DNA of 64,000 bases from Candidatus Buchananbacteria bacterium (lineage in GTDB: Bacteria; Patescibacteriota; Patescibacteriia; 2-01-FULL-39-33), in contig CAISTG010000007.1 of NCBI GenBank assembly GCA_903888345.1, positions 1,075 to 65,074 of the forward strand, read 5' to 3'. Position numbers and translations under genes: made by a program. This document shows, one piece after another, positions 6,564-63,600 of the stretch. Under the pieces are notes generated by a model. That model had not been told where the DNA came from, searched no databases, and saw nothing but the letters and a program-made list of their open reading frames with translations. How positions within the stretch are numbered: position 1 is the first letter of the stretch; every line of letters starts with the position of its first letter.

Positions 6564-6573
6564 CTCCACCGTC

Positions 6574-6593: not shown

Positions 6594-6748
6594 CCAGTGA
6601 ACAGACAGAGTATCGGTGATTGACGAAGTAGGGTTATAATTTTATCGTTGCGATTTCTTTAATGGGGGATCAAAAACGATTTCAATATAAAAATTAAGGA
6701 AGGTGACATTATGACAGGCTTTAACCGGCTGGTCATAAAACAAACAAT

Positions 6749-23089: not shown

Positions 23090-23241
23090 TTTTAGTACGC
23101 GTGTCATCCCCGCGAAGGCGAGAAGCTACCCCCTATTATTTTTCTAGATCCCCACTTCTGCCTACCGGTAGACACGTGGGTGGGAATGAAAAGGGTGTGG
23201 GGTAATAATGTTAAGAAATAAAATTTTAATTTAAAAAAAAT

Positions 23242-30936: not shown

Positions 30937-31626
30937 ATGCTTATTGGCGGCTTACAGCCCGTAACCCTTTTAGATTATCCGCAAAAAGTGGCAGCAATCA
31001 TATTCACCGCAGGGTGCAATATGCGCTGTCCTTTTTGTTATAATTTCAAATTGGTTTTGCCGGAATTGATTAATCGTGATAATCTATATGAAGAAGACAA
31101 GGTCATTGATTTCTTAAAAAGGCGTAAGAAATACCTTGACGGCTTAGTAATTACCGGTGGTGAACCGACACTGCAGCCAGACCTACCTGAGTTTTTGCGG
31201 AAGATGAAAAAAATTGGCTATTCGATTAAGCTCGACACTAATGGTCTCTGGCCGGAAGTGGTGGCGGCCTTGATCGAAGAGGGTTTGGTAGATTATATTG
31301 CCATGGACATCAAGGGCCCGAAAGATAGTTACGAAAAATTTGCCGGTGTTAAAGCGGGTCGGATTGAAGAAACTATTAGTTTAATAATGAATTCCGCTTT
31401 ACCTTATGAATTTCGTAGTACGCTCGTCAAGGGCTTGCATATGGCGGAGGACATTACGTTAATGGCAGAGTTGATTAAGGGTTCCGATTTGTATTATTTA
31501 CAAAATTATGGCACCAGTGATCCACTCGCTGGTCCAAATTTTAAGGGGCGCTCCTTTACGATCAAAGAATTGACTGAGTTTCAGTCGTTAATTGGTAATC
31601 AAGTTAAAAGTTGCTCAATTAGATAA
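30937..31626 (+). CDS. nrdG: anaerobic ribonucleotide reductase activating protein (radical SAM)
   Basis: 229 aa. Radical-SAM CNMRCPFCYN cluster. GGEPTL SAM-binding motif. Confidence 0.85.
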   Translation: MLIGGLQPVTLLDYPQKVAAIIFTAGCNMRCPFCYNFKLVLPELINRDNLYEEDKVIDFLKRRKKYLDGLVITGGEPTLQPDLPEFLRKMKKIGYSIKLDTNGLWPEVVAALIEEGLVDYIAMDIKGPKDSYEKFAGVKAGRIEETISLIMNSALPYEFRSTLVKGLHMAEDITLMAELIKGSDLYYLQNYGTSDPLAGPNFKGRSFTIKELTEFQSLIGNQVKSCSIR

Positions 31627-31638
31627 AGTGACGCCACT

Positions 31639-31787
31639 GTGTCATTCTGGACTCTCTTTATGTCGTGGATGGTTCACTGTATGTCATTCCGGGCTTGATC
31701 CGGAATTTGCGCCCTTACTAATGACACGCAACGAGATTCCGGCTCAAGGCCGGAATGACAAGGGGAGGGGCCGGGAATAAGGCCGCC
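31639..31787. repeat. solo copy of MITE-like palindromic element (GTCATTCCGG...CCGGAATGACA termini)
   Basis: tgtcattctgg (degenerate), tgtcattccgggcttgatccggaat, attccggctcaaggccggaatgaca. Homologous to copies at 45.1-45.5 kb and 46.57 kb. Confidence 0.7.
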
Positions 31788-42895: not shown

Positions 42896-45028
42896 ATGCC
42901 CCGTAAAACTCCCTTAGAAAAAATTAGAAATATCGGTATTATCGCTCACATCGATGCTGGTAAGACCACCGTTTCCGAACGCGTTTTATTCTACACCGGT
43001 AAAAAACATAAGATTGGCGAAGTTCATGAAGGTGAAGCCACCATGGACTGGATGGAACAAGAAAAAGAGCGTGGTATTACTATTACCTCAGCTGCCACTA
43101 CTTGCTATTGGCCAAATCCTGAATGGTTAGGTGGCGGAGAAATCCAGATCAACTTAATCGATACCCCAGGCCACGTTGACTTTACTGCCGAAGTGGAGCG
43201 CTCTTTGCGCGTGCTTGATGGCGGTGTCATCGTGTTTGATGGTGTTGCTGGCGTGGAGCCACAATCCGAAACTGTTTGGCGTCAATCGGAAAAGTATCAT
43301 GTGCCAAAATTAGGCTTCGTCAACAAGATGGATCGTATGGGTGCTAACTTTTATAACGATTTGAAATCTATTCATGATCGTTTAACAGCTCATGCTCATC
43401 CAATCCAATTGCCAATCGGCGCTGCCGAAACTTTCACTGGTATTATCGACTTGTTCGAAATGAAAGCCGAAATCTACAAAGATGAAATGGGTACCAAGTT
43501 TGAAGAATCTGAGGTCCCAGCTGATGAATTAGAACGCGCCAAAGAATACCGCGCTAAATTAGTTGAAGCCATCGTTGAAACCGACGAAGTTTTGATGGAA
43601 AAATATTTAGCTGGTGGCGAAATTTCTATTCCTGAATTAAAGAAGGCTTTAAGACAAGCCGTTATTGGTAATAAATTAGTGCCAATTCTTTGCGGTTCTG
43701 CTTTGAAGAATAAAGGTGTTCAATTTTTATTAAACGCGATTGCTGATTACTTGCCAAATCCTTTGGATATTCCAGCACCACTGGGCCATGCCGTTGAAGA
43801 TGAAGAAAAAGCGATTCCAGTTTCCGTTGTAGACTCTGTACCAATGGCTGGTTTGGCTTTCAAGATTGCCACTGATCCGTTTGTTGGTAAATTAGTATTT
43901 TTCCGCGTTTACTGTGGCGTTTTGAAATCAGGATCATATATCGTTAACAATAAGAATGGCAATAAAGAACGTGTCGGTCGTATTTTAAGAATGCATGCTA
44001 ACTCGCGTGAGGAAGTTGAGGAAGTTTATGCTGGTGAAATCGCCGCTTTGGTTGGTATTAGAGATGTTACTACGGGTAACACTTTATCCGATCCTTCTTT
44101 CCCAATTTTGTTAGAATCAATTACTTTCCCAGAGCCAGTTATTGATATTGCGATTGAGCCTAAAACAAAAGCCGATCAAGAAAAGATGGCTTTGGCCTTA
44201 TCAAAATTAGCTGAAGAAGATCCAACTTTCCGTGTACATACCGATGAAGAAACTGGTCAAACGATTATTTCTGGTATGGGTGAGCTTCATTTGGATATTA
44301 TCGTTGATCGTATGCGCCGTGAATTTAAGGTGGAAGCTAATGTGGGTGAACCGCAAGTCGCTTATCGTGAAACTATCAAGAGCAAAGCGGAAGCTGAAGG
44401 TAAATACATTCGTCAATCCGGCGGTCGTGGTCAATATGGCCATTGCTGGTTGCGTGTTGAGCCATCAGAACCTAATAAAACTTTTGAATTCGCCGACGAA
44501 ACCAAGGGCGGTTCTATTCCTAAGGAATATATTAAGCCGATTGAAAAAGGCGCTCGTGAAGCAATGGATCGTGGTATTTTGGCTGGTTACACTTTAATTG
44601 ATATTAAGGTAACTGTCTTTGATGGTTCCTATCATGAAGTTGACTCTTCTGAAGCGGCTTTCAAAATTGCTGCTTCGATGGCTTTCCAAGAGGCGACTAG
44701 AAAAGCGACTCCGATTATTTTGGAACCAATCATGAAAGTTGAGGTGGTGACTCCAGAACAATTTATGGGTGATATCATTGGTGACTTAAACTCTCGCCGT
44801 GCAATCATCAACTCCATGGAAGATCGTGGATCGGGAGCGGCAGCCGTTAAAGTCATTAGCGCTCAAGTGCCATTAGCTGAAATGTTTGGCTATACCACTG
44901 CGATGCGTTCCATGACTCAAGGCCGTGCTTCCTCCTCAATGGAATTCTTCCGTTATAGTGAAGTACCAAAGAACGTTGAACAAAAGATTATTGAAGGTCG
45001 TTCTGGTAAAACCACTGAAAGAAAATAA
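42896..45028 (+). CDS. fusA: elongation factor G
   Basis: 710 aa. G1 [21 protein letters not shown]. Domain IV/V motifs. Confidence 0.95.
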
Positions 45029-45045
45029 AGTCTCATTATATAAAA

Positions 45046-45080
45046 ACACGCTCGGATTAATTTCCGAGCGTGTTTTTTTA
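45046..45080 (+). terminator. intrinsic terminator after fusA
   Basis: acacgctcgga-ttaatt-tccgagcgtgt followed by a T7 run. Confidence 0.6.
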
Positions 45081-45085
45081 TGTCC

Positions 45086-45524
45086 TCTGTCATTCCGGGC
45101 CTGACCCGGAATCTGAGCCCTTGTTTCTGACTCGCACATAGATTCCGGCTCAAGGCCGGAATGACACAAAGGGAGGCCGGAATGACAAAAAAAGGGGGGT
45201 GAGTGGGTAGAGTAGAGTAGGTCCAGCATGCAAGTCATCGTGGGCACCAGTTCAAGTCATTCCGGGCCTGACCCGGAATCTGGGCCCTTGTTTCTGACTC
45301 GCACATAGATTCCGGCTCAAGGCCGGAATGACACAAAGGGAGGCCGGAATGACAAAAAAAAGGGGGGGTGAGTGGGTAGAGTAGAGTAGGTCCAGCATGC
45401 AAGTCATCGTGGGCACCAGTTCAAGTCATTCCGGGCCTGACCCGGAATCTGGGCCATTACTTATGACTCGTAACGAGATTCCGGCTCAAGGCCGGAATGA
45501 TACAAGGGGAGGCCGGAATGACAG
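45086..45524. repeat. tandem array (2.6 units of 167-169 bp), each unit carrying one MITE-like palindromic element plus a ~68-bp G-rich flank
   Basis: gtcattccgggcctgacccggaat...attccggctcaaggccggaatgaca...ggccggaatgaca starts at 45089, 45256 and 45425. Units are near-identical including the flanks. Confidence 0.8.
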
Positions 45525-45609
45525 AGGAGAATTAAGTTATCAACAGTTTTTATATTTTAACTTTAAGCCCATTTTGTGTTATAATAATAGCAATGGATGA
45601 CAAAATTTA

Positions 45610-48600
45610 ATGATCGAATTTAAGAAAAAAGTGCTTAAACATTTACAATCAGAACGATTGCGAGTGTTGGCACTTCAAGCCAAAAAATTTGCTCAAGCCA
45701 AGAAGGCTCACGCCGTTTTTCTAATTAAATTAACGGTGATTTTAGTCGCTTTTTTTAGTGCTGCCGGGATTTTGATTCCCCAGTATAAAATTGATGAGTC
45801 TTTGGTTATTAAAAATCCGGCAATCAAACAAACGACGGCCATTGTGGCGGGTGGGAAGCCGATTAAATATAGTGTTTTGGTAAGACGAACAGAAATTTCC
45901 GATGGTAGTTATTTACTTAAACTGCCTAAGACTGCTAATAACATTGAAGTGGCGACGGCGACTACTAAGCAAATCAAAACCTTATTGTCTGCACCAGAGC
46001 AAATTACTCCCTTAAAGCAACGTGAATTGCTAGCTAAACAGCACCCCAATCTCCAGTCCGGCCTGATTATTAATACCTATCAAGCTTTGGCTGTTCCTTT
46101 GAAATCAATGGTGACCGATCTGTCTTGTCGTTTAACATTGCGACCAAGAGACGCCGTGGTTGTTAATTTAGCGCAGGAGATTAATTTGACGTCAGTCAGA
46201 CAGACGCGATTAAGTAATCATTTGAGTCCGAGTTTATTGGCGATTTTTGTGAGTCCAGAGCTTAGTTGGTCTCGCTATCTAAATGAGCTTATTGGTAATT
46301 TCATTAAAGTGGCCGCGGCTCAGACAGTGGAAGAAATTCCGACTGCCGCTAGCGAATCACCAACTATTGGCTCAGATCCGTTACAAAATTTAATTGACTC
46401 TTTGACGGCTGAACCAAGTGATGTTGTTCCGCCGATTAAGGTTCCTGAGGTTGTGGCTCCCATTGTTGCTTCAGTTTCTAGCACTTTGCCAGAAGTCAAG
46501 GTAGAGCCGATTGATATTGATGTCGCAACCAATGGTTTGCCAGTAGTGCCAACGGTCGTCACCTCTAGTCATTCCGGGCTTGAACCGGAATCTGAGCCCA
46601 CCTCATCAACAACTCAAATGGAGATTCCGGATCAGGTCCGGAATGACAATAGCGGCCTTCCAGAATCTGCCCCCGCTTCCTCCACCGAATTCGTCAAAAT
46701 TGACTTCGAAACCCCGGCTCCAATTATCACCGAACAAAACACTGACTCTGGCAAGTTGGTAACGATTTCTGACCCCAATGAAAATCCAGAAACACCGATG
46801 GTTGACGTTCTCGCCTCTACCAAAATTCCGCCGATTTACAAAGTCGGGCAAGAAGCCAAAATTCACATCAAATGGAAAAACAACGGCGACCAAAACATGA
46901 GTTTCCAGGCTTATGATAGCGACGCCGATGGTTACCTTGATTACGTCGAATGGACTGTCCCGCATCTATCCGAGCAAGTTTTTGAAATTATCTTCATCTC
47001 CAAGGCTTTTCAACTCGATAATGATAAAAATATTATTGCCGATATTTATTCTCAAACTTCCGCCAAAGACGGTAATTACGCTTCCGTCGCTGACGGGCAA
47101 TACGTCCGTGCAACCTTTGATTATGAATTAAATAGTGCAAATGACATTACTATTTATGCCAAAGCGTCGACTACTAATAATCATGGATCAATAGCGGTCT
47201 ATCCAGTCTACACTGACGCCGATGGCAATCAAACCGAAGGCCCGAAACTCGAGACAGTTTATGATGGCAATAACCCTGATTTCAAAAATATTGATCGCGA
47301 TGGCAAATATCGAATCTTGCTAACAAACCTAGATAAGCCAACGGACGTTTTTGATCTCAAAATTTCTGGCGATGTCGATATTGACTTCATCGTTGATCCA
47401 GTCAGCTGGCTCACGGGTTGGAATTATCGCAAATCTCTCACAGTCAATCACTTATATGTTGGCGGTGGCAATGGCAGTGCGGGGGGATCAGAAGACGAAA
47501 CGAATTTTCCAGTCGAAATTTCACTCACTGGATTATCTAATGTTAATGCTAGCGGAACAGATATTAGATTTACAGCCTCAGACGGCGTGACTCCACTTGC
47601 TAGAGAAATCGAATCATATTCTACCACCACTGGTACTCTTGTTGCTTGGGTTAAAGTGCCGACAGTTTCCTATACCGTCGATACCATGATTTATGTTTAT
47701 TATGGCAACTCTTCAGCCACAGAACCGGCTGCCAATTCCACTTATGGCGCGCAGAATGTTTGGACTAATGGCTTTGCTGGAGTTTGGCATTTGGCTGGAG
47801 CAACAAATTCGAGTGATTTAGATTCTACTAGTAATAATAGTACTGGTACGCCATTAGGTGCGACCAAGCCAACTCAGACAACAGGGCAGATTAATGGCGC
47901 CCTAAGTTTTAATGGCAGTACGAGTTATGTTGATATTGCTGAGCCAGGCTCAAGTTTAAATTTTTCTTCTACAAATAATTTCTCATATTCGGCTTGGGTT
48001 AAAACAACTCAGAGCAGTACTCGCTCGGAAATCGTTGGTGATTTTAATAACAACCCGGCGACTAATATGGAGGTGGCGACCGTTGCCAATAGCTCAAATA
48101 TTGATGGAGCCTTTCGAGTTTACTTGGCTGATGGTACTTCAAATATCAAGGATTATCGCACGAATATTTCTATCGCTGACGGAGCTTGGCATAAAGTCGG
48201 CTTCTCATATGCTTCTACTAGCCAAGTGCTGACACTATTTGTTGATGGTGTGGCTCAATCAAACCCGCAAAAAGTATATGATGCCGCGCTTTCTGGCAAT
48301 CTTTATAATGCTTCTACAATAAAAATTGGCGAAGACAATCGACCCGTTACTTTTTTCTTCAATGGCTTAATTGACGAGCTTGGTATTTCCTCAGTCGCTC
48401 GTTCAGCCGGTTGGATAAAAACAGAATACAATAATCAAAACGCCCCGAGCAGTTTTTATGCCACGGGCGCGGAAGAAGCACTGGTCACTCCGGCTAGCAA
48501 CTTCACTTGGACTAATGGCTCCGGTGATGGTAAATGGAGCACTGCCGGAAACTGGCAAGGTGGGGTAGTGCCGGGACCGAGTGACACGGCAACATTTAGC

Positions 48601-51600
48601 GGTTCTGCGACTGGCAATTGTTCGATTGATGTTGATGCTAGCGTCACTGGACTCAACATCGCTTCGGGCTATACTGGCATAGTAACAATGAATGCAAATT
48701 TGGCCATCTCCGGAAATCTGACAGTCTCCGCCGGAACTTTGGCAGTTGGAATTTATAATCTAGCGGTAACTGGAAATTCGACAGTTACTAATGGCACGAC
48801 GACGATTGGTGTTTCTTCATCAACCGGTTGGACAACAACTAATTTAACAATCGGAGCGGGAGGCACAGCATCATCAACAGCGCCGGGCACAATTTATTAT
48901 AATCAGGTGACGGTGAGTGGGACCTTGTCGCCAGATGTTACTGGTACTTATACGGTTGCGGGCATGTCAAACGGAATGCCATATTATTCAAAATTGATTA
49001 ACGGCACTACCTGGTATTTACAGTATTCTCCAAAGAATAATGCGTTAGTATTTTATCTTGCTTCAGCTCTTGATCCTGACAATATGGGGGCGACTAGTCC
49101 AAATCGATGGTTTATGTCTTTTAGCGGTACTCCATATTCTAATTCTTTTGCTGGAGCTTATAGCGCTGGATCAGGTGGAGCAACTGGCATTCCGACCGTC
49201 GCCAACGTCACCGCCTCAGGTGAATACACCAGATTAAACAATTCCAAAATCACCATCTCCGGCAACTTTGATCAGTCCAGTATCTCCTCTAAATTTCTCT
49301 CCGCTTCCTCGCTGATTACTGTCAATGGCAATGGTAGTTTTACTGCGGATGGGACAGTAAATGGTACACAATATAACTCAGTAAGTTTGGTTTTGAATGG
49401 GGTGAATAATCTAAGGTATAACAATAATGCCATTGTTAATAATGGATTCAATAATTTAATTGCCGGACAAGGCGGAAGTACTACGACAATAGCAACAGAT
49501 ATTGGAATTAGTAATACCCTGACTATCGGTTCTGGTAGCATCGCCGGTTCTGCCTATAATTTCTGGCTAACAGGGGCAAATCCACTAAGTTTTGATACAT
49601 CATCAAGATTGGCAGTAGGTTCAATATTGTTCAGAGGAACCACTCAAATAATACCAACTCTTATTAATGGTTATGATTCGACCATACAGGTCAGTCAAGG
49701 TGGGACTACCGTCACCCAAACTGGTAATATCGTAATTAATGGTGTTAATAATATTTATCTAGATAATATTGCAAGACCAGCTGGAATAATAACCTGGAAT
49801 ACGGCTGGTTATAATTTATCTGTTGGTGGGAATATTAAAATTGGCGCTGGCTCTGACTCCGCTCTTAAAAAACTTGACGCCAATGGCTCGGGCGGACGTA
49901 ATTCCATCATTACAGTCGGGGGCAATTGGCTCAATTATGGCACGGCAACTGGGTGCTCGGGAACATGCGTGCCGTCGCAATTTATAGCCGCAAGCTCAAC
50001 GGTTGTCTTTAACGCTACTTCTACTACTCGCACTATAACTAACGGCTCAACTACTTCACCTTTCTATAACCTCACCATTAATGGCACAAGCAGTACTTTC
50101 ACTTTGACTGATAATGCGCGCGTGTCTGGTGACCTTACTGTCACCAATAGTACCTTGGCCATCGGCACAAATGATTTGCTCGTCACTGGCAACTCAATCA
50201 TTACCAACGGCACCACTTCCATCGGCGCCTCAGCAAATACTGGCTGGACGACGAATAATTTAACTTTGGGCGCGAATGGTATAGCTTCGTCCACAGCCGG
50301 AGGAACGGTTTATTATAATCAGGTGACAGTGAGTGGAACGCTGAGTCCAAATGCCGCGGGAGTTTATACGGTAGCGGGGATGTACAATGGAGCGCCATAC
50401 TATACAAACGGAACTTATTATATTTGGTGGCGAACAACGGGGAATTGGCGACTTTCTGACGGTCTCGGAGTAATTTCTGGTGTTTGTTGGTATTTGTATA
50501 CCTCATCTAATATAAATATTATTACTGGGTCTTTTGCCGTATATAATGCAAATGAAACCGGCGAGGCAACTGTCTCCAACGTCACGGCCTCGGGCGAGTA
50601 CACCAGATTAGATAATTCAAAAATTACTGTCAACGGAATTTTTGACCAGTCCAATACAAATTCTAAATTCCTCGCTGCCTCGTCACTTATTACCATCAAT
50701 GGTAATGGAAGTTTTACAGCCGACGGAACACTTAATTCGCTACAATATAATGGCGCTAGCGTTACTTTAAATGGCTCCAGCACGCTGAGCTATAATAATT
50801 TGGCGAATAATTTTGGTAATGGCTTTAATAATTTAACAACTGGGCAGAGTGGTGGGACGACGACTCTTTCTTCCGTTGGTTTGACGGTCAAAAATCAATT
50901 ATCAGTAGGGTCAGGCACTTTCAATGGGCCGGGTTATGTATTTTTGGCAGGCTCCGCGCCCTTAAATTTTAATGTTTCCTCTCACTTGGCAATTTCCTCA
51001 CTATATTTTTTGACGACCTATGTCACCACCACGATTCCGACTTTGACCAATGGTTATGATTGCGACATTATTGCTATCGGCAATCCTAATGTAATTATTC
51101 AAACTGGCGATGTCACTCTTAACAATAGTAAGTTCCTCGGCATCAATGGCAATAATAATGATTTCCCGACAACTTGGAAGACGGACGGATATAATTTAAC
51201 AGTTGGCGGAAATATCCAAATCGGTACTTTTAATAATAATGTAAATCTACAAAAACTCGACGCCACTCATAATGGGGCGCGCACTTCAACTATCACTGTC
51301 GGCGGTAATTGGCTCAACTATGGCACAGCGACGATTAATGGTAGGTTTGTGGCCGACAACTCCACGGTGATTTTGACTAGCACCAGTTCGAGTGCCAAAA
51401 TCACGTCTGGTTCTTCGACCTCTCCGTTTTATAATCTAACTATCAACGGCGCAGGCGGAACTTATACTTTGCAAGATGCATTAGCTGTTGCACATAATCT
51501 AACACTGACAAACGGCACGCTTGATACAAAATTAAACAGTAACTATCCCGTGACGATTGGCAGTGCTGATCCGATTAATGGTGATTTCTCGCAAACTACC

Positions 51601-54600
51601 ACCGCCAAATTCTTAGCGCGCAGTTCCGTCATAACTTTAAACGGCAATGGTAATTTTACGGCGGATGGTACGATTGATGGCACGCAGTTTAATGGCGTAA
51701 GCTTAACACTTAATGGAATTAATACGCTTACTTATAATAACTTGGCAGCTCCGTTTGCCTATGGATTTAATAATTTAACCGTCGGACAAGGCGGAAGCAC
51801 TACTACCTTAGCGAGTCATTTGGCTGCAATTAATACATTAACTATTGGCTCAGGCACATTATCTGGGACTACTAGAACTCTCTTTGTGTTGGGAGCAAAT
51901 CCTTTAAATTTTGATGTAAGTTCGAGACTTGCAGTAGGTCAGCTTGAGTTTATAGGTGCAAATCAAACTATTCCCGCCCTGGTGAATGGCTATGATTCAA
52001 GTATCTATTTGGTGCATACAAGCGGAACCGTTACTCAAACCGGAAATGTTATTATTAATTCGCCAAATACCTTAACTATTGGATTAACATCCGCTCAGCC
52101 GGAACGTAAAGATACTTGGAATACATCTGGATACAACTTAACAGTCGGAGGCAATCTTCAAATCGGCGTTGGGAATGACTCCGGTCTCAAAACTCTCGAC
52201 GCCACTGGTGCTGGTGGACGTACTTCAACTATTACCATCAGTGGTAACTGGCTTAATTATGGAAATGGCACGGCGTCATCAACTTTTATTTCGGCAAATT
52301 CAACTGTGATTTTTAATTCAACGACAACTGGCAAAACGATTACCTCTGGTGCGATCAACTCGGCTTTTTATAATGTGAATTTTGCTGGCGTTGGCGGGGC
52401 TTACACCTTGCAAGATAATTTTAGTGTGCTGGGTGATTTGAATGTTGTCGCTGGCGTATTAAACGCTGGAACTTATAACCTGGCGGTCACGGGTAATTCC
52501 ACTGTGTCTAACGCTACCACGACTATCGGCATTTCGGCGGGTACTGGTTGGACGACGAATAATTTGACAATTGGGGCGAACGGCACGGCTTCGTCTACAG
52601 CTAATGGCACTATTTATTACAATCAAGTGATAGTGAGCGGAACTTTGAATCCAGATGCGACGGGGACTTATACTGTCGCGGGGATGTATGGAGGGAAACC
52701 GTATTATAGAAGGGGCTCTGATTCTTGGTATTTATCATGGAGATTTAATTCAGTTTGGGACATAACACCGCAATCTCCTGAGCAAGGTGCTGTTACAGCA
52801 TGGAGAAGGACCGGAGACCCTTTAGTTGGTAATTATTACCCAGTTGGAAGTATACCCCCAACCGGCACTGCCACCGTTGCCAACGTCACTGCCTCAGGCG
52901 AATATGCTAGATTAGATAATTCCAAAATCACCATCGCTGGCAACTTCGACCAGTCCAATATCTCCTCAAAATTCCTCGCCGCTTCGTCGCTGATTACCGT
53001 CAATGGCAATGGCAATTTCTCTGCGGACGGAACTTTGGATTCGACACAATATAATAATTCGATCTTGGTTTTAAATGGTACGAATACGTTGGCATATGTT
53101 AGTTTGGCTAATACTAATGCTAATGGATTTAACAAATTAGTTGTAGGTCAAAACGGTAACACAACGGAAGCGCCTGGTTTACAAGTAGCGATTCAAAATC
53201 TGACTGTGGGATCGGGGACACTGCATGGATCTTCCGCGTATTTTAATTTACTCGGGCCTAATCCATTAACTTTCGACACTGATAATTCATCTTTTAATAT
53301 TTATGGGTTGCAGTTTTTTGGTACCAACCAGACGATTCCGGCCTTAACGAAGGGGTATAATTGTCATGTGTTTATTCCCAATAGTAGTTCCATTGTGACA
53401 CAAACAGGGAACGTTAACATCTTGAGTCCGCGGTCTTTATTTCTTGGTGGTTATGCTGGTATTACTGGCACAGGACCGTCAAGATCGCAGTCATGGAAAA
53501 CTGACGGTTATAATTTGACTGTTGGTGGCAGTATTCAAATTGGTAATGGCTCTGACACGGGGCTTAAGACGCTTAATGCTTTTAGTGGCGCGACTAGTAC
53601 TCGCAATTCCACCATCACCGTTGGTGGAAACTGGCTCAATTATGGTAATGGTTCAGCTCCGTCGCAATTTATTGCTGGTAGCTCTACGGTCGTGATGGCG
53701 GGCACGAGTGCTTCTGGCACAATTATCTCTGGCACCACAACTTCGCCATTTTATAACTTGACTATAAACGGGGTAGGCGGGACCTACACGTCGCAAGATA
53801 AAACATCAGTTAGTGGAACTTTGACGGTGACGGCGGGGACTCTAGCTATTGGCACTAATGACTTAGCGGTCACTGGAGCTTCAACTATCAACGGTGCTTT
53901 AACTCTTGGTAATTCATCGAGTACTGGTTGGACAACAGGGGACTTGAATCTCGGCGCCAGCGGAACAATTACTTCAAACGCCACGACTTATTACAACCAA
54001 GTGACGGTTAGTGGGACGCTGAGCCCTGATGCGAGTGGGACCTATACTGTCTCGGGAACTGCAAATGGTTATCCAAGGTATGTAAAAGGTGCTATGTCAA
54101 TAATTAACACTGGCACTGGTCTCTGGAGAATATATACAGACGCGACTAATTTTTATTATTATAAGATTAGCGCAGAAATGGCTGGAGCATACACCAACTT
54201 TAATGGTTCTACTGGTGTTGCTACTGTCGCCAATGTCACGGCTAGCGGGATTTATTATGGAGTGACTTCTGACGTGACGATCTCGGGCAATTACACCCAA
54301 ACCGCTGGCGGATATTTCAACGCCGGACCGTCTTTGATTACCCAAAATGGTAATGGCAATTTCACAGCGGATGGGAATAATGACAACACAAAGTCGGCAC
54401 AATTTAATAATGCAAGTTTGGTTTTGAATGGGAATAATACGCTGACTTATAATAATAATTCAAACTATGGTTACTATGGATTTAATAATTTAACCGTTGG
54501 GCAAGGAGGAAGCACCACCACAATAGCGTCACATTTTACTGTAAAAAACATATTAACGATAGGATCGGGAACTTTAACAGGCAATTATTGGGTATATTTG

Positions 54601-57600
54601 TTTGGGGCAAATCCTTTAAGTGTTGATACTGCTAACTCAGCTATTTCAATTGGCTTTTTAGCTTATAATGGGACAAGCCAGACTATACCTGCTTTAACCA
54701 AAGGTTATGGTTGCAGTATAGAAGTGGATAGTGGTAATGATGTTATTACTCAGACGGGGGCTGTTGTATTGAATGGTACAGGGTTGCTTAATGTGACTTC
54801 TAATCCGGCTGGGATAGCCACATGGAAAACTGATGGTTATAACTTGACCGTTGGTGGACGGATCCAAATCGGTGTCGGTTCTGACACTGGTCTCAAAAAA
54901 CTCGATGCCACCGGTTCTGGCGGACGTAATTCTACCATCACTGTCGGAGGTAACTGGCTCAATTATGGCAATAGCGCTGACCCGGCTAATTCTTCTCGAT
55001 TCATTGCGGCGAGCTCAACTGTTATCTTTAATAAAATCTCAGGCACACAAACTTTAAATGCTGGTGCTAATTATTCTTCATCTACTTTCTATAACCTAAC
55101 GCACTCTGGCGCTGGCATTTTACGGATTATCACTAACCCAATTACAATTACCAACAATTTCACCAATTCCGCAGGAACTTTTGATGCAAATGGCCAGGTG
55201 GTAAACGTGGGAGGGAATTGGAATAATACGGCAACTTATTTGCATGGCACTAGCACGGTCAACTTGATCGGTTCTGTGGCTCAAGCGATTATGGGCACCA
55301 CCACTTTCTATAACTTAGTCAAAACCGTCACAACTGCTGCGACGCTCACTTTTGAAGCCGCCAAAACTCAGGTGATCGCTGGTACTCTGACCTTACAAGG
55401 CGCGGCTAATCAATTACTAACTCTTGTTTCTTCTGTCCCGGGTACTGCTTGGTTCATTAATCCTTTGGGATCGGTTGTGATGAGTTTCTTAAATATTTCT
55501 GATGCCATAAATAGTTCGGCTAGTCCTATTGTCGCGACTTTTTCTAAAAACTTAAGCAACAACCCTAATATCACTTTCTCGGCGACGACCGTCACTTGGA
55601 CGGGAGCCTCAAGCACTGACTGGAACACGGCGGGTAACTGGGACACGGGCTATGTGCCAAACACTACCGACAACGTTGTGATTTCAAGTGCTTCCAATCA
55701 ACCCATACTTTCCACCTCGACTACTGTTAATAATTTGACAGTTAATTCTGGTGCGATTCTCGCTATTGGTACTAATAACATGACGGTGACCGGAAATTCC
55801 ATCATCAACGGCACCACGACTATCGGCATTTCCGCTGGGACGGGTTGGACGACGAATAATCTGACTATTGGAGCAGGCGGCGTGGCTTCGTCTACGGCTA
55901 ATGGCACGATTTATTATAATCAAGTGACGGTGAGTGGAACTTTATCGCCGGATGTTGCTGATACATATACCGTAGTAGGGATAAAAAATGGATATCCCGA
56001 TTATGCATCAAATTCACAGCATAATGGATATACTTATCATATTTGGCGATATACAAACGGAAACTACTATATCACGCCAGATTATTTAGTATTCTCTTCA
56101 GACCCGGGTCATTGGGTTAACACAAATGGTACAGCGGCTGGAACATATCCCGCCAATAGTCCATCAGTTACAGGGTCTGCAATCGTCGCCAACGTCAACG
56201 CCTCAGGCGAATATACCAGAATGGATAATTCCAAAATCACCATCGCTGGCAACTTCGACCAGTCCAACATTACTTCAAAATTTCTCGCTGCTTCGTCGCT
56301 GATTACCGTTAATGGCAATGGTACCTTCATTGCCGATGGGACGGTGAATAGCACGCAATATAATAGTGCTAGCTTAGTTTTGAATGGAAACAATACTCTG
56401 ACGTATGGCAATTTAACAGCTAACTGGGCAAATGGATTTAATAGTTTAACTACTGGACAAGGAGGGGCTACTACAACTTTGGCAAGTACTGCTACGATTA
56501 GGAGTTTATTGACGGTTGGGTCGGGAGCATTGACGGGTAACGCTTCGCTATCATTACTGAGTCCCAATCCTTTAAGCTTTAATGTTGCTTCGATCTTATC
56601 AATTAATTTATTATATTTTAATGGTGGCTCAAATCAAACTATACCTACCTTAGTTAACGGGTATAGCTGTAATATTTATGATTATCATAATGGACAATCA
56701 ATGCAACAAACTGGTGATGTTGTTTTAAATGCTGGAAAGTCTTTGTATGTTGGAAATACTGCGACAGGTTGGATTGATACTTGGAAAACTGATGGTTACA
56801 ATTTAACTGTCGGCGGTAATTTAACAATTGGATATGGCGCTGACACCGGACTCAAAAAACTTGATGCTACAAATTATAGCTCACCCGGTAATCGCACTTC
56901 AACAATTACAATTGGAGGTAATTGGTTCAATTATGGAACAGCAACGGGATGTGCAGGCTCATGTACACCATCCTCCTTTATCGCTGCCAGCTCAACAGTT
57001 ATCTTCAATGCCACCTCAACCACAAGAACTATTACTTCTGGCTCATCAACTTCGGCTTTTTATAACCTAACAATTAATGGCACGAGCAGTACTTTCTCTC
57101 TTGTTGATAATTTGAGTGTTGCCGGAAATTTGAATGTCACTGCTGGCACCTTAGCTATTGGGGTTAATAATTTGGCAGTCACGGGTTCTTCCACTATTAA
57201 TAGCACCTTAACACTTGGTAATTCATCGAGCACCGGTTGGACAACAGGTGATTTGAATCTTGGCGCAAGTGGAACAATCACCTCCAACGCCACAACTTAT
57301 TACAACCAAGTGACGGTGAGTGGAACGCTGAGCCCGGATACGGCGGGCACTTATACGGTTGATGATGTAGGCTATCCAGCTGGATATAATGGGCAACCAG
57401 TATACAAACGAAATGGCTTAGTTGGTGGAGTACAATTTTGGAATTGGCTATCTTATAATGGGTACAGGTATACAACTGGACTTTTGCCTGGAGTCGCAAC
57501 GGGTAATGTGTGGCAAAAAAATCCTGGATCTATGATCGGTACGTATACAGCGGCGGGCACATATACGGGCACCGCCACCGTAGCTAACGTTACGGCTAGC

Positions 57601-60600
57601 GGGATTTATTATGGTGCTACTTCTGACGTGACTATCTCGGGCAATTACACTCAGGCTGCTGGCGGATATTTCAACGCCGGGCCGTCACTTATCACAGTCA
57701 ATGGTAATGGAAATTTCACGGCTGATGGCACGGGAACTAAGCAGACTCAATTCAATAATGCGAGTTTAGTTTTGAATGGGGTGAATACGTTAGCATATAA
57801 TAATTTGGCAGCGTTTAGCACTAATGGATTTAACAATTTAACCGTTGGGCAAGGCGGTAGTACTACAACTTTATCTAACCATATCAGCGTTAGGTCTGGC
57901 TTAACAATTGGTTCCGGCACATTGAGTGGAAGTAGTTATGTTATATATATGGCGCAATTCTTGGGCGCTCTCAGTTTTGATGCTAATTCCCATCTTAGTA
58001 TTTCAAGTTTGAACTTTAGAGGTAATATCTCATTACCCACCCTCGTTAATGGCTATTGTTCTATTAATGTGGAGGAAAATGGTACGATAATAACCCAAAC
58101 GGGTAGCATTATTATCAGTTCTAACTTGATTATGGGTCAAACTGCAGGGTATGTCAGTACGTGGAATACCGACGGTTACAACTTATCAGTAGGCGGTAAT
58201 CTCCAAATAGGTAATGGTTCTGATTCCGGTCTCAAAACTCTTAACGCTAATGGCTCGGGAGGACGTACATCCACCATTACCGTTGGTGGTAACTGGCTCA
58301 ACTATGGCAATGGTACAGCACCATCGCAATTTATGGCAGCAAGTTCGACAGTTATCTTCAACAAAACTTCTGGCACGCAGACATTAAACGCTGGCGCTAA
58401 TTATGCTTCATCAACTTTTTACAACTTAACTCATTCTGGATCCAGCACTTTACAGTTGTTAGTTAATCCTTTGACGATTACCAATAACTTCACCAACTCC
58501 GCCGGTACTTTTGATGCTAACGGTTTCAATATCAATGTCGGTGGTGGTTGGAATAATACTGCGACCTATTTACACGGCACTAGCACCGTAACACTTTTTG
58601 GCTTGTCTCAAGCGATTATGGGCACCACGACTTTCTATAACCTAGTCAAAACCGTCACAACTGCAGCGACGCTGACCTTTGAAGCCGCCAAGACTCAAGT
58701 AATTGCTGGTGCTCTAACCTTGCAAGGCGTTGCCAATCAATTATTAACTTTAGTTTCCTCTATACCTGGCACCTCGTGGTTCATTAATCCACTGGGTTCG
58801 GTTGTTTTGAGTTATTTAAATATCTCTGACGCCATTAATAGCTCAGCCAGTCCGATTATCGCGACCTTTTCAAAAAACTTAAGTAACAATTCCAATATCA
58901 CTTTCTCCGCTACGACCGTCACTTGGACGGGAGCCTCAAGCACTGACTGGAATAATGCCAGCAACTGGGACGTTGGATATGTGCCTAATATGACTGACAA
59001 TGTGGTAATTGCTAGCACGACTAATCAACCTGTGCTCTCCACTTCGACCTCTGTTAATAATATTACAGTCAATTCTGGTGCGATTCTCGCTATTGGTACT
59101 AATAACATGATAGTGACCGGAAATTCCATCATCAATGGCACCACCACCATCGGCATTTCCGCGGGCACTGGTTGGACAACGACTAATTTGACGATTGGAG
59201 CAGGTGGTACGGCTTCGTCTACGGCCAATGGCACGATTTATTATAATCAAGTTACGGTGAGCGGGACTTTGTCACCGGATGCAAGCGGTACGTATACGGT
59301 GGCGGGGATGTATGCAGGAAAGCCATATTATAGACGAGGGACTGACAATTATTATATTTATTATAATATGACGGGGTCGGGATTTGATTATTATCGTATT
59401 GGAACCACGTTGGGTTCTACATACCCAGTTTGGAATTTTGTTGTTACTGAAAGTCTATTTAATCTTCCTAGCTCGTCATACTTTAATAATGGAACCACAG
59501 GCACCGCCACAGTCGCCAACGTCACCGCCTCGGGTGAATACACTAGATTAGATAATTCCAAAATCACCATCGCTGGCAACTTCGACCAGTCAGCGACATC
59601 ATCCAAATTCCTCGCCGCTTCATCTTTGATCACTCAAAATGGCAACGGCACATTCACGGCTGATGGCACATTGAATTCGACACAATATAACGGGGCGAGC
59701 TTGGTTTTAAATGGTGTAAACACTCTGGCTTATAATCATATATATGCCGGAACATCAAATGGATTCAATAACCTAACTGTAGGCCAAAACACTAATACTA
59801 CGACATTTGTTTCTGACTCCAACTTCGCCATCTTAAATACTCTTACTGTTGGCACGGGCACATTCTACAGTGTTACTAATTCTCATTTTTATCTATATGG
59901 AGCTATTCCATTAAGCGTTGATGCAGCATCCCATATTTCTATTGCTGCACCAAATAAGCTTTACTTTTATGCCTCAAATGTAACAATTCCGGCCCTTACA
60001 AATAATGGTTATGATTGCAGTATTGCTATTAGGGGGACAAATACTACAATTACACAAACAGGAAATGTAGTTATTAATGGTTCTAATACATTAACTATTG
60101 GTTTAGCGGTGGCTGGCTCCATTGATACCTGGCTAACCAACGGTTACAACTTAACTGTCGGAGGAAATCTTCAAATAGGATGGGGTTCCGACACTGGTCG
60201 CAAAACCCTTGATGCTACTGGTTCAGGCGGACGCAATTCCACTATCACCGTCGGAGGTAACTGGCTCAACTATGGCAATAGCGCTGACCCTGCTAATTCT
60301 TCACGATTTATTTCCGCAAGTTCAACTGTTATTTTAACTAGTACCAGTTCAGGAGCGACAATCACTTCAGGTTCTTCAACGTCCGCTTTTTATAATCTCA
60401 CTATCAACGGCACGGGCGGGACTTACACTTTGCAAGACAATGCTAGTGTTGCTGGAGCTTTGAATGTGACAGCTGGCACCTTGGCTATTGGCGTTAACAA
60501 TTTAGCGGTCACGGGTATTTCAACTATCAACAGCGCCTTAACGCTCGGCAACTCATCTAGCACTGGCTGGACAACAGGGGACTTGAATCTTGGCGCCACC

Positions 60601-63600
60601 GGCATAATCACCTCCAACGCCACGACTTATTACAATCAAGTGACGGTGAGTGGGACTTTGAGTCCTGATGTGACGGGGATATATACTGTGGCGGGGGTTT
60701 ATGGTGGGAAGCCTTATTATAGGCGGGGAACCGATAATTATTATATTTATTATAATTCAGGATCAAATTATTGGGATATATCAATTAGTGTTAATGATGG
60801 AACTCGTCGATGGACACAAGTTTCTGGTATTTTTGCCGCAAATTATGAACCTATAAATAGTGCCTCAGGCACCGCCACCGTCGCGAACGTCACAGCAAGC
60901 GGACTTTATTATGGTGCGACTTCTGACGTGACGATCTCGGGCAATTACACTCAAACCGCTGGCGGATATTTCAACGCCGGTCCGTCTTTGATTACGCAAA
61001 ATGGCAACGGAAATTTCATCGCTGATGGCAACAACGACGCCACCAAATCAGCTCAATTTAATAATGCGAGTTTAGTTTTGAATGGAATGAACACGCTGAC
61101 TTATGGACATAATTTTTCTGTAGTTGGTGATGGATTTAATAATCTTACTACAGGACAAAACGCGAATACGACAACTCTCGCCAGTTCATTCACGGTTAAA
61201 AACACTCTAACCGTTGGGACGGGGACAGTTACTGGTTCGTCAATATTAAATTTACTCGGAGCAACACCCCTTAATGTCGTAGCTAGCAGCTCTATCATAT
61301 CCGTAACGACTCTAAACTTTTATACTGGTGTTACTCTGACTCAGACGATACCGAATATCACTAATGGTTATAACTGTAATATCCAAGCGACGGGCTATGG
61401 ACAAACAATAAATCAATTAGGTGATATTAAAATTAACGGATCAAATTATTTTTATATCGGAACCTTTGTTGATGCTGGTAATTCTGTAGCATGGTTAACT
61501 AATGGGTATAATTTGACGGTGGGCGGCAATGTAAGGATTGGCCTAAATAATGACTCTGCTCTCAAAAAACTTGACGCTACCAATTATACCAACCCCACTT
61601 CGACTGCTAGCTCTACCATTGTCGTCGGTGGCAACTGGACTAATTATGGAACTGGTTCCGCCCCATCACAGTTCACTGCCGCCAGCTCCACGGTCATTTT
61701 CAACAAAACCTCTGGCACACAAACCTTAGCCGCTGGCGGTAATTACGCTTCGTCCACTTTCTTCAATCTGACTCATTCCGGTTCTAGTACTCTGCAATTA
61801 ATCACTAACCCTTTAACGGTCACTAATAACTTTGTTAATTCTGCCGGAACTTTTGATGCCAATGGGTTTAACATTTACGTTGGTGGCAATTGGAATAATA
61901 CTGCGACCTACTTGCACGGCACCAGCACTGTCACTCTTTTTGGCTTGTCTCAAGCGATCATGGGCACCACGACTTTCTATAATTTAGTCAAAACCGTTAC
62001 CACCGCTGCGACCCTAACTTTTGAGGCCACCAAAACTCAGGTGATTGCTGGTGCTCTGACTTTGCAAGGCGTTGCCAATCAATTATTAACTTTAGTTTCT
62101 TCAATTCCTGGCACCTCGTGGTTCATTAATCCATTGGGTTCAGCCGTGCTTAATTTCTTAAACATTACTGATGCGGTTAACAGCTCTGTTGGTGCAATTA
62201 TTGCCACTAACTCCAAAAACTCAAGCAACAATTCTAACATAACGTTCCCAGCCGCGACCGTCACTTGGACTGGTGCTTTGAGCACTGACTGGAACACGGC
62301 AGGCAACTGGGATGTTGGTTATGTGCCTAACGCTACTGACAACGTCGTGATCGCTAGCACCACTAATCAACCAGTTCTTACTACTACAACTTCAGCGAAC
62401 ACTCTTACTATTAATGCTGGAGCAACTTTAATAGTCGGAACAACCAGTTTGGCAATAGCTGGAACTTCAACCATTAACGGCACACTGACGATTGGTACTT
62501 CAGCTGGTGCGGGTTGGACAACTGGGGATTTGATCCTTGGTGCCAGCAGTACTATTACTTCGAATGCTACGACTTATTATAACCAGGTGACGGTGAGTGG
62601 GACTTTGAGTCCGGATGTGACGGGGACTTATGTCGTGGCAGGAGTATATAATGGGAAACCATATTGGAAGCATAATTCTTTGAATTGGTGGGTATGGGCC
62701 AATCCGCTAGGAGATTATAGAATTACCGATGGTCTCGGACAACAGAATACTTATCGATGGAATGCCGCTGGTGGCCCAATAACAAATTATAATCCTGTAA
62801 ACCCAACAACCGGCACCGCCACCGTCGCCAACGTCACAGCTAGCGGAATTTATTATGGTGTGACCTCAAAGGTAACGCTCTCAGGAAATTACACTCAAAC
62901 CGCTGGCGGATATTTCAACGCTGGTCCATCACTTATTACCGTCAACGGCAATGGTAATTTCACGGCCGATGGCTCGGGTAACTCTGGAGCTTATTCTACT
63001 CAATTTAATAACGCGAGTTTGGTTTTAAATGGAGTAAATACGCTGACATATAATAATATATCTAGTTACTGGGGAAATGGGTATCATAATTTGACTGTTG
63101 GACAAGGAGGTAGCACCACCACAATTGCTAGTAGTTTTAATATTCGAAATATTTTAACCATTGGATCTGGTAGCTTAACTGGTAATAAAACTTTGTTCTT
63201 AACGGGCTTAAACCCACTTAGTTTTGACGTCAATTCTAGATTATCTATAACAACCTTAGAGTTTTTTGCAGTTGGACAAACAATCCCAACTCTTGTAAAT
63301 GGTTATGATTGTAACATGGAGATTTCTACAACAAATGCCTCTGTTACTCAGACCGGAAATGTAACTTTTAATAATGCTCATTACTGGGACATTGGAGCAG
63401 GTGATAATGGTAATGCTGGACATACTATTACTTGGAATACTAATGGCTATGATCTAACAGTAGGCGGTACTCTTTCAATCGGCGCGGGCTCTGACACGGG
63501 GGTCAAAAAACTTGACGCCACTGGCTCAGGCGGACGCAACTCTACCATCACTGTCGGCGGTAACTGGCTCAATTATGGCAATGGCACTGCTTCTTCAACT

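Follow-up and report, generated by a model that had tools for sequence, protein, structure and literature searches.

A palindromic repeat translated in frame in the linker of a giant surface protein is a probable member of the CGTC-tagged REPs

The locus studied here raises the question of how a palindromic element came to lie in frame inside the gene for a giant surface protein, and whether its resemblance to the palindromic elements of Rickettsia (RPEs) reflects convergence or common descent. The giant gene begins with an ATG at position 45610 on the forward strand of the window, by which we mean the whole 64-kb stretch of DNA that was analyzed, and its reading frame (45610-64000) extends over 6130 codons with no stop up to the window end. 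The original prediction that a palindromic repeat is located in frame within this open frame held up, and the sequence at positions 46568 to 46648 was as quoted. The repeat is a head-to-head pair of tagged hairpins, here referred to as a dimer, on the forward strand at about 46567 to 46648, with a left arm at 46568 to 46594 (GTCATTCCGGGCTTGAACCGGAATCTG), a center at 46595 to 46621, and a right arm at 46622 to 46648 (AGATTCCGGATCAGGTCCGGAATGACA). Position 46568 is the second codon base in the giant reading frame, in which the copy is read as ...SSHSGLEPESEPTSSTTQMEIPDQVRNDNSG... and contributes the peptide S-HSGLEPES-EPTSSTTQM-EIPDQVRND. It was the fifth double hairpin of ~80 nt identified in the window, the remaining 4 copies being intergenic.

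Each arm consists of a (C/T)GTC-tagged hairpin with the layout GTCATTCC-stem-loop-GGAATC, in which the stem is formed by ATTCCGGG and CCCGGAAT and the loop is 5 nt long, and the 2 arms are placed head-to-head. Alignment of the in-gene copy with the 4 intergenic copies showed identities of 25/27 for the left arm and 23-24/27 for the right arm, close to the 29/32 and 24/28 given previously for the 2 halves, whereas the center was identical at just 11-13 of 27 positions and was 3 nt longer. The GTC tag and the C that follows the palindrome are preserved in both arms of the in-gene copy (GTC-ATTCC...GGAAT-C). The 8-bp stem of the right arm is intact, and the left arm starts from AGTC in place of C/TGTC and has a G.A mismatch as its uppermost stem pair. 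The fold of the copy as single-stranded DNA had an energy of -23.8 kcal/mol (z = -7.4). From GTC to GAC, the in-gene copy measured 80 nt and the intergenic copies 77 nt. Of the earlier statement that about 81 nt, or 27 codons, were inserted with the frame kept, the part about the frame stood, but an insertion of exactly 27 codons could not be established, since the spans differ and the insertion boundaries need an empty site.

The 4 intergenic dimers were all located on the forward strand. One was identified at 31682 to 31760, downstream of a radical-SAM gene (30937-31626) and with a degenerate TGTCATTCTGG 41 nt upstream, and the other 3 (45088-45166, 45255-45333, and 45424-45502) belonged to an array of 3 tandem units of ~168 nt each (45020-45523, forward strand), every unit of which contained one dimer and an extra GGCCGGAATGACA half-site. 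The array was flanked by an EF-G gene with a terminator-like hairpin and by the promoter-like site of the giant gene (45557-45585, forward strand; TTAACT-17-TATAAT with a TG extension and 10/12 matches), which is located between the array and the ATG at 45610. Two further elements were identified on the same strand: a decayed dimer (TGTCATCCCCGCGAAGGCGAGAAGC ... GGGTGGGAATGAAAAG) at 23102 to 23188, between 2 genes with TSP3 repeats, and a single hairpin (CGTCATTCCCGCGTCGGCGGGAATCCAG) at 6569 to 6597, directly after a YqeY-like gene and upstream of the gene for a 1074-aa protein with a T4SS-pilin domain. The 64-kb window contained 5 of the ~80-nt dimers, in which ~25-27 nt separate the arms. 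TGTC was found on 6 arms, including the right arm of the in-gene copy, CGTC on the single hairpin at 6569, and AGTC on the left arm of the in-gene copy as well as on 2 intergenic left arms; the tag of the right arm at 45492 to 45502 was degraded to TATC.

The window contained 13 exact GTCATTCCGG sites, every one of them within the elements, and 18 sites at no more than 1 mismatch, compared to 2.6 ± 1.4 in shuffled sequences. Given these numbers and the fold z of -7.4, a chance origin of the repeats in the window is excluded. No direct repeats of the kind left by target-site duplication were visible beside any copy. A comparison of the whole window with Rfam gave no family at the gathering score, and over the elements just chance-level matches to miRNA and leader families.

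A scan for the fixed outer bases of the arms (GTCATTCCGG-N7-CCGGAAT ... ATTCCGG-N7-CCGGAATGAC) identified at least 115 loci, with several copies per genome, in hosts from at least 6 phyla, among them Firmicutes, Desulfobacterota, Alpha-, Beta-, and Gammaproteobacteria, Saccharibacteria, and Nomurabacteria. The dimers at these loci had a total length of 65-93 nt, and the top base pair of the stem covaried within each arm (G-C, A-T, or C-G). Copies from other phyla mostly had a C at position -1, and the tail after the stem, CTG(A/G) in the window copies, was mostly CCAG in copies from other genomes.

A published group of repeats that matches this description is that of the CGTC-tagged REPs, with the families CGTC-1 to CGTC-4 (Di Nocera, De Gregorio, Rocco, BMC Genomics 2013; PMC3733652). 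They are defined by a CGTC tag (or TGTC/CCTC), a stem of 8-9 bp starting from AT (ATTCC...GGAAT), a loop of 4-5 nt, and the tail consensus CCA, and occur mainly as head-to-head dimers with spacers of 20-100 bp that may fold into a single long hairpin (PMC3733652). Most are located downstream of genes, and some intragenic dimers encode 20-30 residues that probably fall within linkers or loops (PMC3733652). The superfamily takes in dRS3/NTS of Neisseria as well as RPE-4 (= CGTC-4) and RPE-6 (= CGTC-1) of Rickettsia, and the 2013 survey described CGTC repeats in 5 phyla, mostly in Alphaproteobacteria, with no associated enzyme (PMC3733652). We consider it likely, with a probability of roughly 0.8, that the element studied here belongs to the CGTC-tagged REPs and shares its module with the NTS/dRS3 of Neisseria and the Ssn-related motifs, and that it entered the linker of this Patescibacteria-type surface protein, where it now lies in frame, from the genome's own repeat family. 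The original prediction had regarded the RPE-like behavior as convergence in an unrelated lineage, a view that we abandon because the arms fit a superfamily that includes RPE-4, RPE-6, and dRS3. Since RPE-4 and RPE-6 were already reported in this superfamily, along with intragenic dimers (PMC3733652), the resemblance to RPEs most likely reflects common descent of the element family.

The segment of the giant protein that contains the copy is apparently disordered, according to the structural model. In this model, an N-terminal helix (residues 2-51) that includes a hydrophobic stretch is followed by a small β-rich domain that extends to about residue 143, a segment of low model confidence (residues 144-357), and a conserved β-sandwich domain at about residues 358-600, after which the gene encodes DUF2341, Laminin_G_3, and repeats that recur about every 3.3 kb. 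The element peptide is located at about residues 320-347, with pLDDT values of 27-33 over the peptide versus 70-84 and 80-90 in the flanking domains. Among homologs, the linker was hypervariable and both flanking domains were conserved. The suggestion that the element adds ~27 residues to a linker thus agrees with a low-confidence segment placed between 2 folded and conserved domains, and as for an RPE-type element, the copy occupies an in-frame site in an intact-looking gene with conserved domains on either side. No ortholog of the giant gene close enough to reveal an empty site was present in the collections searched. At the protein level, just the N-terminal 355 residues as the query gave no significant match, and a metagenome scan with the N-terminal 600 residues recovered distant family members only (6 loci), 5 of which were without the GTCATTCC/GGAATGAC word, the sixth having a single word ~70 nt upstream of the gene.

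In-frame copies were also identified in other genes. Strict hairpin-derived peptides were found in the linkers or loops of 10 of the 68 homologs of the N-terminal module, compared to 0.02 expected, and the hairpins were confirmed at the DNA level in all 4 homolog loci examined (L124-L127). One gene of this surface-protein family contained at least 6 hairpin units within 1.9 kb. Outside the family, the gene for a betaproteobacterial helicase (P0069, in locus L002) contained 2 in-frame dimers of the same arm type, read in the HSGLDPES frame, and here empty sites were observed, with one dimer missing from 10/10 orthologs and the second from 9/10 (66-77% identity). The idea of a single stop-free frame was not confirmed, as 2 of the 3 frames contain no stop in the arms, whichever the orientation, and real genes make use of both. 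The NCBIfam library contains RPE domain models, and a scan of the encoded peptides against it gave no RPE or other model at E <= 10. Long reading frames across elements in 5 high-GC loci (L017, L038, L069, L095, and L100) were rejected as spurious by composition. The copy in L053 appears to be an upstream one that is not translated.

The Ssn GIY-YIG nucleases, which cut single-strand DNA, have hairpins of the NTS type as their targets (Chenal et al., Nat Commun 2025; PMC11893778); for the Neisseria enzyme, the critical bases are the upstream GTC and the C that follows the palindrome. The NTS, with the consensus CGTCATTCCCGCGMAVGCGGGAATCYRG, are handled as single 28-nt hairpins and are rare in genes (2% in N. 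meningitidis 8013), and in Neisseria they are clustered around surface-protein genes and modulate the recombination of transforming DNA (PMC11893778). The dimer arms do not fit the published consensus, and the sole close match in the window was the single hairpin at 6569 to 6597, at 26/28 positions. The SRM pattern HGTCWYN(0-2)YYVSBRHN(0-5)WNVSBRGN(0-2)RNCYNB, as transcribed from the text of PMC11893778, gave one match in the window, at 23102 to 23129, compared to a mean of 0.18 in shuffles, and did not match the CCGG-stem arms. In the literature searched, the CCGG-type arms could be traced neither by their literal sequence nor by the encoded peptides, and the NTS-type string GTCATTCCCGC matched the Ssn paper (PMC11893778).

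The gene for the small single-domain GIY-YIG protein (cd10448) is typically arranged as repeat-gene-repeat, and the activity demonstrated for Ssn is cutting, not transposition (PMC11893778). We found that GIY-YIG ORFs of 95 aa (PF01541, E 1e-15 to 1e-17) accompany the arm type described here in 2 genomes. In Desulfopila (L014), dimers at 108 to 177 and 807 to 876 flank the ORF at 299 to 574, and in Uliginosibacterium (L011) the ORF is embedded in a dimer cluster; both proteins were assigned at the Pfam level (PF01541), not specifically to cd10448. No GIY-YIG gene was identified within the 64-kb window or in the 8 Patescibacteria or unclassified loci examined. A search of solved structures with the GIY-YIG protein gave just spurious WD40 matches. 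Since the dimer form flanks GIY-YIG genes, the question of what multiplies the repeats becomes directly testable.

The history that we propose is that one of the genome's own repeats would have entered the linker and been tolerated there, in a segment with no fold to disrupt and in a landing frame (xHSGLxPES ... IPxQxRND) that is stop-free in both arms. The center, which contains no stop, may later have drifted or have come from another subtype, and the arms would have remained near the consensus. A small Ssn-type nuclease with a single GIY-YIG domain probably multiplies, or at least recognizes, the repeat family; it would bind the hairpin on single-stranded DNA and cut a short distance (a few bases) upstream of GTC. 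The arms of a head-to-head dimer present the motif on opposite strands. We infer the presence of such an enzyme in this genome, together with any role in mobility or recombination. A speculative and rather unlikely extension is that in Patescibacteria the hairpins are more than neutral passengers. With an Ssn-type single-strand nuclease at work on incoming or replicating DNA, the copies located upstream of and within surface-protein genes would mark points of cutting or recombination and thereby shuffle or diversify the linker-delimited modules of host-contact proteins, with translation supplying linker segments. The stacking of hairpins in one family, seen both in the 10/68 homologs and in the 1.9-kb gene, is consistent with such diversification.

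An alternative that we regard as unlikely is that the copy is a scar of recombination, left at the junction when the N-terminal anchor module (45610 to ~46560) was joined or exchanged via repeat copies, with the array remaining upstream. This module of ~1 kb is bracketed by copies (45088-45502 upstream and 46568-46648 downstream), the N-terminal module is joined to various C-terminal domains in homologs, and the NTS near surface-protein genes in Neisseria provide a precedent in their effect on transforming DNA (PMC11893778). However, the N-terminal domain and the domain at residues 358-600 co-occur across the linker in the aligned full-length homologs (such as P0010, P0025, P0032, P0038, and P0050), which argues against an obvious shuffling boundary at the element, and the helicase gene shows that this arm type can enter a gene by plain insertion, its orthologs having clean empty sites.

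It is also quite improbable that the in-gene copy was kept for a function of its own, either as a hairpin in the mRNA that slows down translation once the membrane anchor has been made or as a site at which single-stranded DNA is cleaved or recombined, with diversification of the surface protein as the outcome. Its arms are conserved and its center has diverged, but the intergenic copies likewise have arms that are better preserved than their centers, so that arm conservation characterizes the repeat family irrespective of coding context. Folding of the long hairpin is favored on the sense strand (-23.8 versus -20.5 kcal/mol for the antisense strand), which points to G-T/G-U wobble pairing there, and hairpins recur in the protein family, up to the gene with at least 6 of them; the 2013 survey, however, described intragenic inserts in many unrelated proteins, often encoded by DNA-repair genes, and argued for neutrality in linkers and loops (PMC3733652). 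Finally, that the intergenic copies descend from an ancestral peptide-coding sequence, already judged the less likely option in the original prediction, is rejected here as extremely improbable: the in-gene copy has the most divergent center and could be old, but the peptide is encoded by 0/10 full-length homologs, the linkers of which cannot be aligned, the same arm ends are intergenic in at least 6 phyla and flank GIY-YIG genes, and conservation is seen at the DNA level (palindrome and covarying stem), with different frames in different genes.

The RPE-like behavior most likely represents another outpost of one ancient, cross-bacterial repeat family rather than an invention of a tiny genome, and the palindrome of this CGTC family tolerates translation in 2 of 3 frames. 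The host range of the family is hereby widened to Patescibacteria, Firmicutes, and Desulfobacterota, with a CCGG-stem variant that escapes the published pattern for Ssn-related motifs as transcribed. The same module was described in the 2013 paper on CGTC REPs (PMC3733652) and in the 2025 paper on NTS and Ssn (PMC11893778), which does not cite the former. In surface proteins of candidate phyla, the hairpins are a frequent translated part of linkers and loops, and may plausibly generate differences in length and epitopes among proteins with a probable role in host contact.

The RPEs described by Ogata et al. in 2000 and 2002 are said to lie in frame in functional-looking genes, where they add a short peptide at a permissive site, and the classic RPE-1, of ~100-150 bp, reportedly encodes a conserved peptide. 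The in-gene copy is likewise in frame in an intact-looking gene, with a short peptide added at a permissive site, but it is shorter than RPE-1, and its possible link to the RPE families goes through the published classification of RPE-4 and RPE-6 (PMC3733652). REPINs or BIMEs, which are mobilized by RAYT transposases of the IS200/IS605 tyrosine type, and MITEs (ERIC, Correia, QMITE) are similarly short inverted hairpin doublets that occur in many copies and are occasionally intragenic and translated. A MITE was rejected, as there was no target-site duplication at any copy and no adjoining transposase, and so was a REPIN/RAYT system, as the window tag is (C/T)GTC and not GTAG, no RAYT or IS-derived transposase was located nearby, and the only gene seen flanked by repeats is that for GIY-YIG. 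With the NTS and Ssn-related motifs, the arms share the GTCATTCC-hairpin-GGAATC-YRG module, including the critical GTC and the C after the palindrome, as well as the location of repeats beside surface-protein genes and of a small GIY-YIG gene between repeats (L014 and L011), but they contain a palindrome of 21 nt, compared to 20 nt in NTS, and another stem interior. The likeness to CGTC-REPs covers the outer CGTC/TGTC tag on window arms, the sizes of the stem (8 bp, from A-T) and the loop (5 nt), the multiple copies, mainly head-to-head dimers with spacers within 20-100 bp and able to fold as one long hairpin, the usual placement downstream of genes, and the insertions in the helicase gene, which parallel those published for DNA-repair genes. 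The differences are the hosts, which here are a Patescibacteria-type genome, Firmicutes, and Desulfobacterota, the CCGG-type stem interior of the window arms, their CTG tail instead of CCA, the AGTC tag, among others on the left arm of the in-gene copy, which is outside the variants listed in PMC3733652, and the recurrent stacking of many units in a single surface-protein gene family, which is absent from the 2013 description.

The palindromic sequence at positions 46568-46648, inside the giant surface-protein open reading frame (ORF), agreed exactly with that of the original prediction and is here called the CDS copy. It consists of 2 tagged hairpins, the left arm (46568-46594) and the right arm (46622-46648), on either side of a centre (46595-46621), and is translated in the giant-ORF frame as ...TSSHSGLEPESEPTSSTTQMEIPDQVRNDNSG... 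By repeat and word searches, 4 further copies were identified in the window, all intergenic: one at 31682-31760 and 3 in an array of 3 tandem units of about 168 nt (45020-45523) that lies between the EF-G and giant genes. The exact sequence GTCATTCCGG was present at 13 sites in the window, all 13 within these elements, and with at most 1 mismatch at 18 sites, compared with 2.6 ± 1.4 in shuffled sequences. In a five-way alignment, the CDS copy matched the intergenic copies at 25 of 27 positions in the left arm and 23 to 24 of 27 in the right arm, whereas its centre, which is 3 nt longer, matched theirs at only 11 to 13 of 27. The arms were also better kept than the centres among the intergenic copies themselves (24 to 27 of 27 versus 15 to 23 of 24 positions). 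Both arms of the CDS copy retain the GTC and the trailing C, and as single-stranded DNA it is predicted to fold into one long hairpin (-23.8 kcal/mol, z = -7.4). From GTC to GAC, the CDS copy spans 80 nt and each intergenic copy 77 nt. The predicted 81-nt in-frame element thus stands as a palindromic copy in frame, but an insertion of exactly 27 codons cannot be confirmed.

We noted that the copies at 45020-45523 represent one tandem triplication, not independent insertions; units 2 and 3 were 93% to 100% identical, and each unit contained a dimer together with some 90 nt of additional sequence (GGGGGTGAGTGGGTAGAGTAGAGTAGGTCCAGCATGCAAGTCATCGTGGGCACCAGTTCAA). Downstream of the array, at 45557-45585, is a good promoter-like site. 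An extra half-site, GGCCGGAATGACA, GGGGATGACA or GAGAATGACA, followed each right arm at a distance of 8 to 12 nt (45174-45186, 45341-45353, 45510-45522 and 31765-31777) and recurred in unrelated genomes, such as at position 2036 and 3135 of locus L125 and 4570 of locus L126, so the repeat unit may comprise a third, partial arm in addition to the dimer. A singlet hairpin, CGTCATTCCCGCGTCGGCGGGAATCCAG, at 6569-6597, between a YqeY-like gene and the gene for a 1,074-aa T4SS-pilin-domain protein, was identical to the Neisseria NTS consensus at 26 of 28 positions, and the source genome therefore contains at least 2 stem variants of the repeat family. A decayed dimer with CCCGCG-type stems was located at 23102-23188, between 2 genes with bacterial TSP3 repeats, and was the sole site in the window that fitted the published SRM pattern.

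The giant ORF starts with an ATG at 45610 and is stop-free over 6,130 codons to the end of the window. Its first 600 residues retrieved 68 relatives, mostly from Patescibacteria, such as Staskawiczbacteria, or from unclassified metagenomes, of which 10 full-length sequences could be aligned on both sides of the element. Among these 10, the N-terminal helix and small domain were weakly conserved (about 35% overall identity), the domain at residues 358 to 600 approximately was well conserved (about 60%), and the segment between them was hypervariable, in sequence as well as in length, with a high content of P, S, T, and E. The HSGLEPES...VRND peptide was absent from all 10 aligned relatives. In an AlphaFold model based on this alignment, the pLDDT was 70 to 84 at residues 60 to 143 approximately, 80 to 90 at 358 to 600, and only 26 to 47 over residues 144 to 357, with 27 to 33 over the element peptide. 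Because the domains on both sides are conserved and the segment between them is hypervariable with low pLDDT, the element resides in a translated, probably disordered linker of an apparently intact gene. There was no support for an antisense ORF at 46606-46965.

Further downstream, the giant ORF encodes DUF2341 and Laminin_G_3 domains and long internal repeats. Its body (49000-64000) is a series of diverged repeats, at 60% to 84% DNA identity, whose period is about 3.3 kb and whose sub-periods are about 1.35 to 1.95 kb; TWxTDGYNLTVGGN...ITVGGNWLNYG is a recurring motif. Giant putative surface proteins were unusually abundant in the window; a second very large ORF of 4,083 aa (10007-22258), in which no tagged hairpins were found, directly follows the 1,074-aa pilin-domain ORF (6749-9973).

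Searches of protein and metagenome databases, as well as a protein look-up, did not identify any close orthologue of the giant gene, and the direct empty-site test failed. However, a UvrD/AddA-type helicase of 1,166 aa (P0069) in a betaproteobacterial metagenome-assembled genome contained 2 dimers with CCGG stems that are read in the frame of the window copy, encoding GHSGLDPES...WIPGQARND and RHSGLDPES...GFRRDDG. The first copy was missing from all 10 orthologues (66% to 77% identity) and the second from 9, part of it being shared by one closer relative; these orthologues provide clean empty sites. The helicase also had a third insert, about 31 aa long (GSAGRTFPHPHPIPPLREAHPKGCEGEGVS; residues 95 to 125 approximately), which was missing from most orthologues and seems to be another kind of translated repeat.

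Strict hairpin-derived peptides (VIPxxxGIQ, WIPxxxGMT, DSxxQGND) were also identified in 10 of the 68 members of the giant-protein family, with 17 occurrences, compared with 0.02 proteins expected from shuffles. Hairpins were confirmed in the DNA at all 4 loci examined: a dimer of 120 nt in the homologous linker (L124), at least 6 units including one CCGG-type dimer and one dimer in a domain loop (L125), 5 units in the coding sequence and a dimer just past the stop codon (L126), and a singlet in place of a conserved-domain loop (L127). The left arms detected in these genes all read V-I-P, whereas that of the window copy reads S-H-S-G in another frame. The arms are open in 2 of the 3 frames in either orientation, the third being closed by TGA within CTTGA and AATGAC. 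Together, the empty sites in the helicase and the recurrence in the surface-protein family provide strong, although indirect, support for in-frame insertion by this type of element. Repeated TPRNDE, APRNDES, and DTRNDES motifs in the linkers of 4 proteins (P0003, P0005, P0025, and P0046, residues 250 to 450), which in P0046 form three 45-aa tandem units, may be right-arm remnants amplified in linkers. In L126, the surface-protein gene rich in hairpins (P0009) was followed, about 1 kb downstream, by a bAvd-type gene (5486-5827); bAvd is an accessory gene of diversity-generating retroelements.

The best supported reading is that a dimer copy of the CGTC-REP/NTS-like type from the same genome entered the linker of the giant gene, where the lack of structure at the site and a frame free of stops would explain why it was tolerated. 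In that frame, 2 intergenic copies have a TAG in the centre and the CDS copy has none; the centre of the CDS copy either originates from a different sub-type or has been purged of stops. A recombination scar at a module boundary is a possible origin of the CDS copy, but we do not favour it, since both flanking domains occur together in relatives, and it is improbable that the copy is under selection as an RNA or DNA site. An ancestral coding sequence as the source of the intergenic copies was rejected, as were a MITE (no target duplication or parent insertion sequence) and a RAYT-type REPIN (no GTAG tag).

To examine the spread of the module, we scanned one genome per species, with only the outer arm bases fixed (GTCATTCCGG-N7-CCGGAAT ... 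ATTCCGG-N7-CCGGAATGAC), and obtained at least 115 loci. Among the matches listed, the hosts included Peptococcaceae, Gracilibacteraceae, Syntrophomonadaceae, Desulfocapsa and other Desulfobacterota, Propionivibrio, Uliginosibacterium, Sulfuritalea, Gammaproteobacteria, Sphingomonadales, 3 Saccharibacteria, and one Nomurabacteria; a genome usually contained many copies, and the whole element was 65 to 93 nt with a genome-specific centre. The module, GTCA-TTCCGGN-CTTGA-NCCGGAA-TCCAG, was conserved also at positions left free in the scan, its stem-top N...N pair covaried (G-C, A-T or C-G), and the stems of the two arms of an element may differ. The unit is therefore a tagged hairpin, about 27 nt long, deployed as an inverted doublet. 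The degenerate SRM pattern, as transcribed, did not match the CCGG-stem arms, the palindrome of which is one base longer.

The same module has been described in 2 papers, the later of which does not cite the earlier. CGTC-tagged REPs have a CGTC or TGTC tag, an 8-9 bp stem that opens with A-T pairs, a 4-5 nt loop, and a short tail, and mostly form head-to-head dimers, the spacers of which measure 20-100 bp; no associated enzyme was found (PMC3733652, 2013). Intragenic dimers encode 20 to 30 residues, many in repair genes and probably in linkers or loops (PMC3733652), so translated CGTC dimers in linkers have been known since 2013. The Neisseria NTS is defined as CGTCATTCCCGCGMAVGCGGGAATCYRG; its units are clustered near surface-protein genes and rare inside genes (2%) (PMC11893778, 2025). 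The 94-aa GIY-YIG protein SsnA requires single-stranded DNA for binding to the hairpin and cleaves a few bases upstream; the critical positions are the 3 bases preceding the palindrome and the C following it (PMC11893778). Our literature searches retrieved no description of the CGTC-REP family in Patescibacteria, of heavy recurrent hairpin use in one candidate-phyla surface-protein family, or of the CCGG-stem variant flanking GIY-YIG genes.

In various bacteria, genes homologous to ssnA typically have such motifs on both flanks, a repeat-gene-repeat layout that the authors themselves likened to an insertion sequence (PMC11893778). We observed the same layout, with the gene recognized by its GIY-YIG domain match, in a Desulfopila contig, where a 95-aa ORF (E = 1.4e-17) lies between 2 CCGG-type dimers, and in Uliginosibacterium flavum, where an ORF 62% identical to it (E = 2.3e-15) lies within a dense cluster of CCGG-type hairpins. 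The latter array (4399-5500 of locus L011) contained more than 10 hairpins, some of them in tandem units about 75 nt long; the cultured U. flavum would be a convenient isolate for work on the nuclease-repeat pair. No GIY-YIG gene of this kind was present in the 64-kb window. The Ssn-type GIY-YIG nuclease is the only candidate mover of these repeats with evidence of association. The window element works like the Rickettsia palindromic elements (RPE), a likeness originally attributed to convergence. However, CGTC-1 corresponds to dRS3 of Neisseria, and in R. conorii CGTC-1 and CGTC-4 correspond to RPE-6 and RPE-4 (PMC3733652); by these equivalences the window element falls within the superfamily of RPE-4 and RPE-6, and the resemblance is therefore most likely not convergent.
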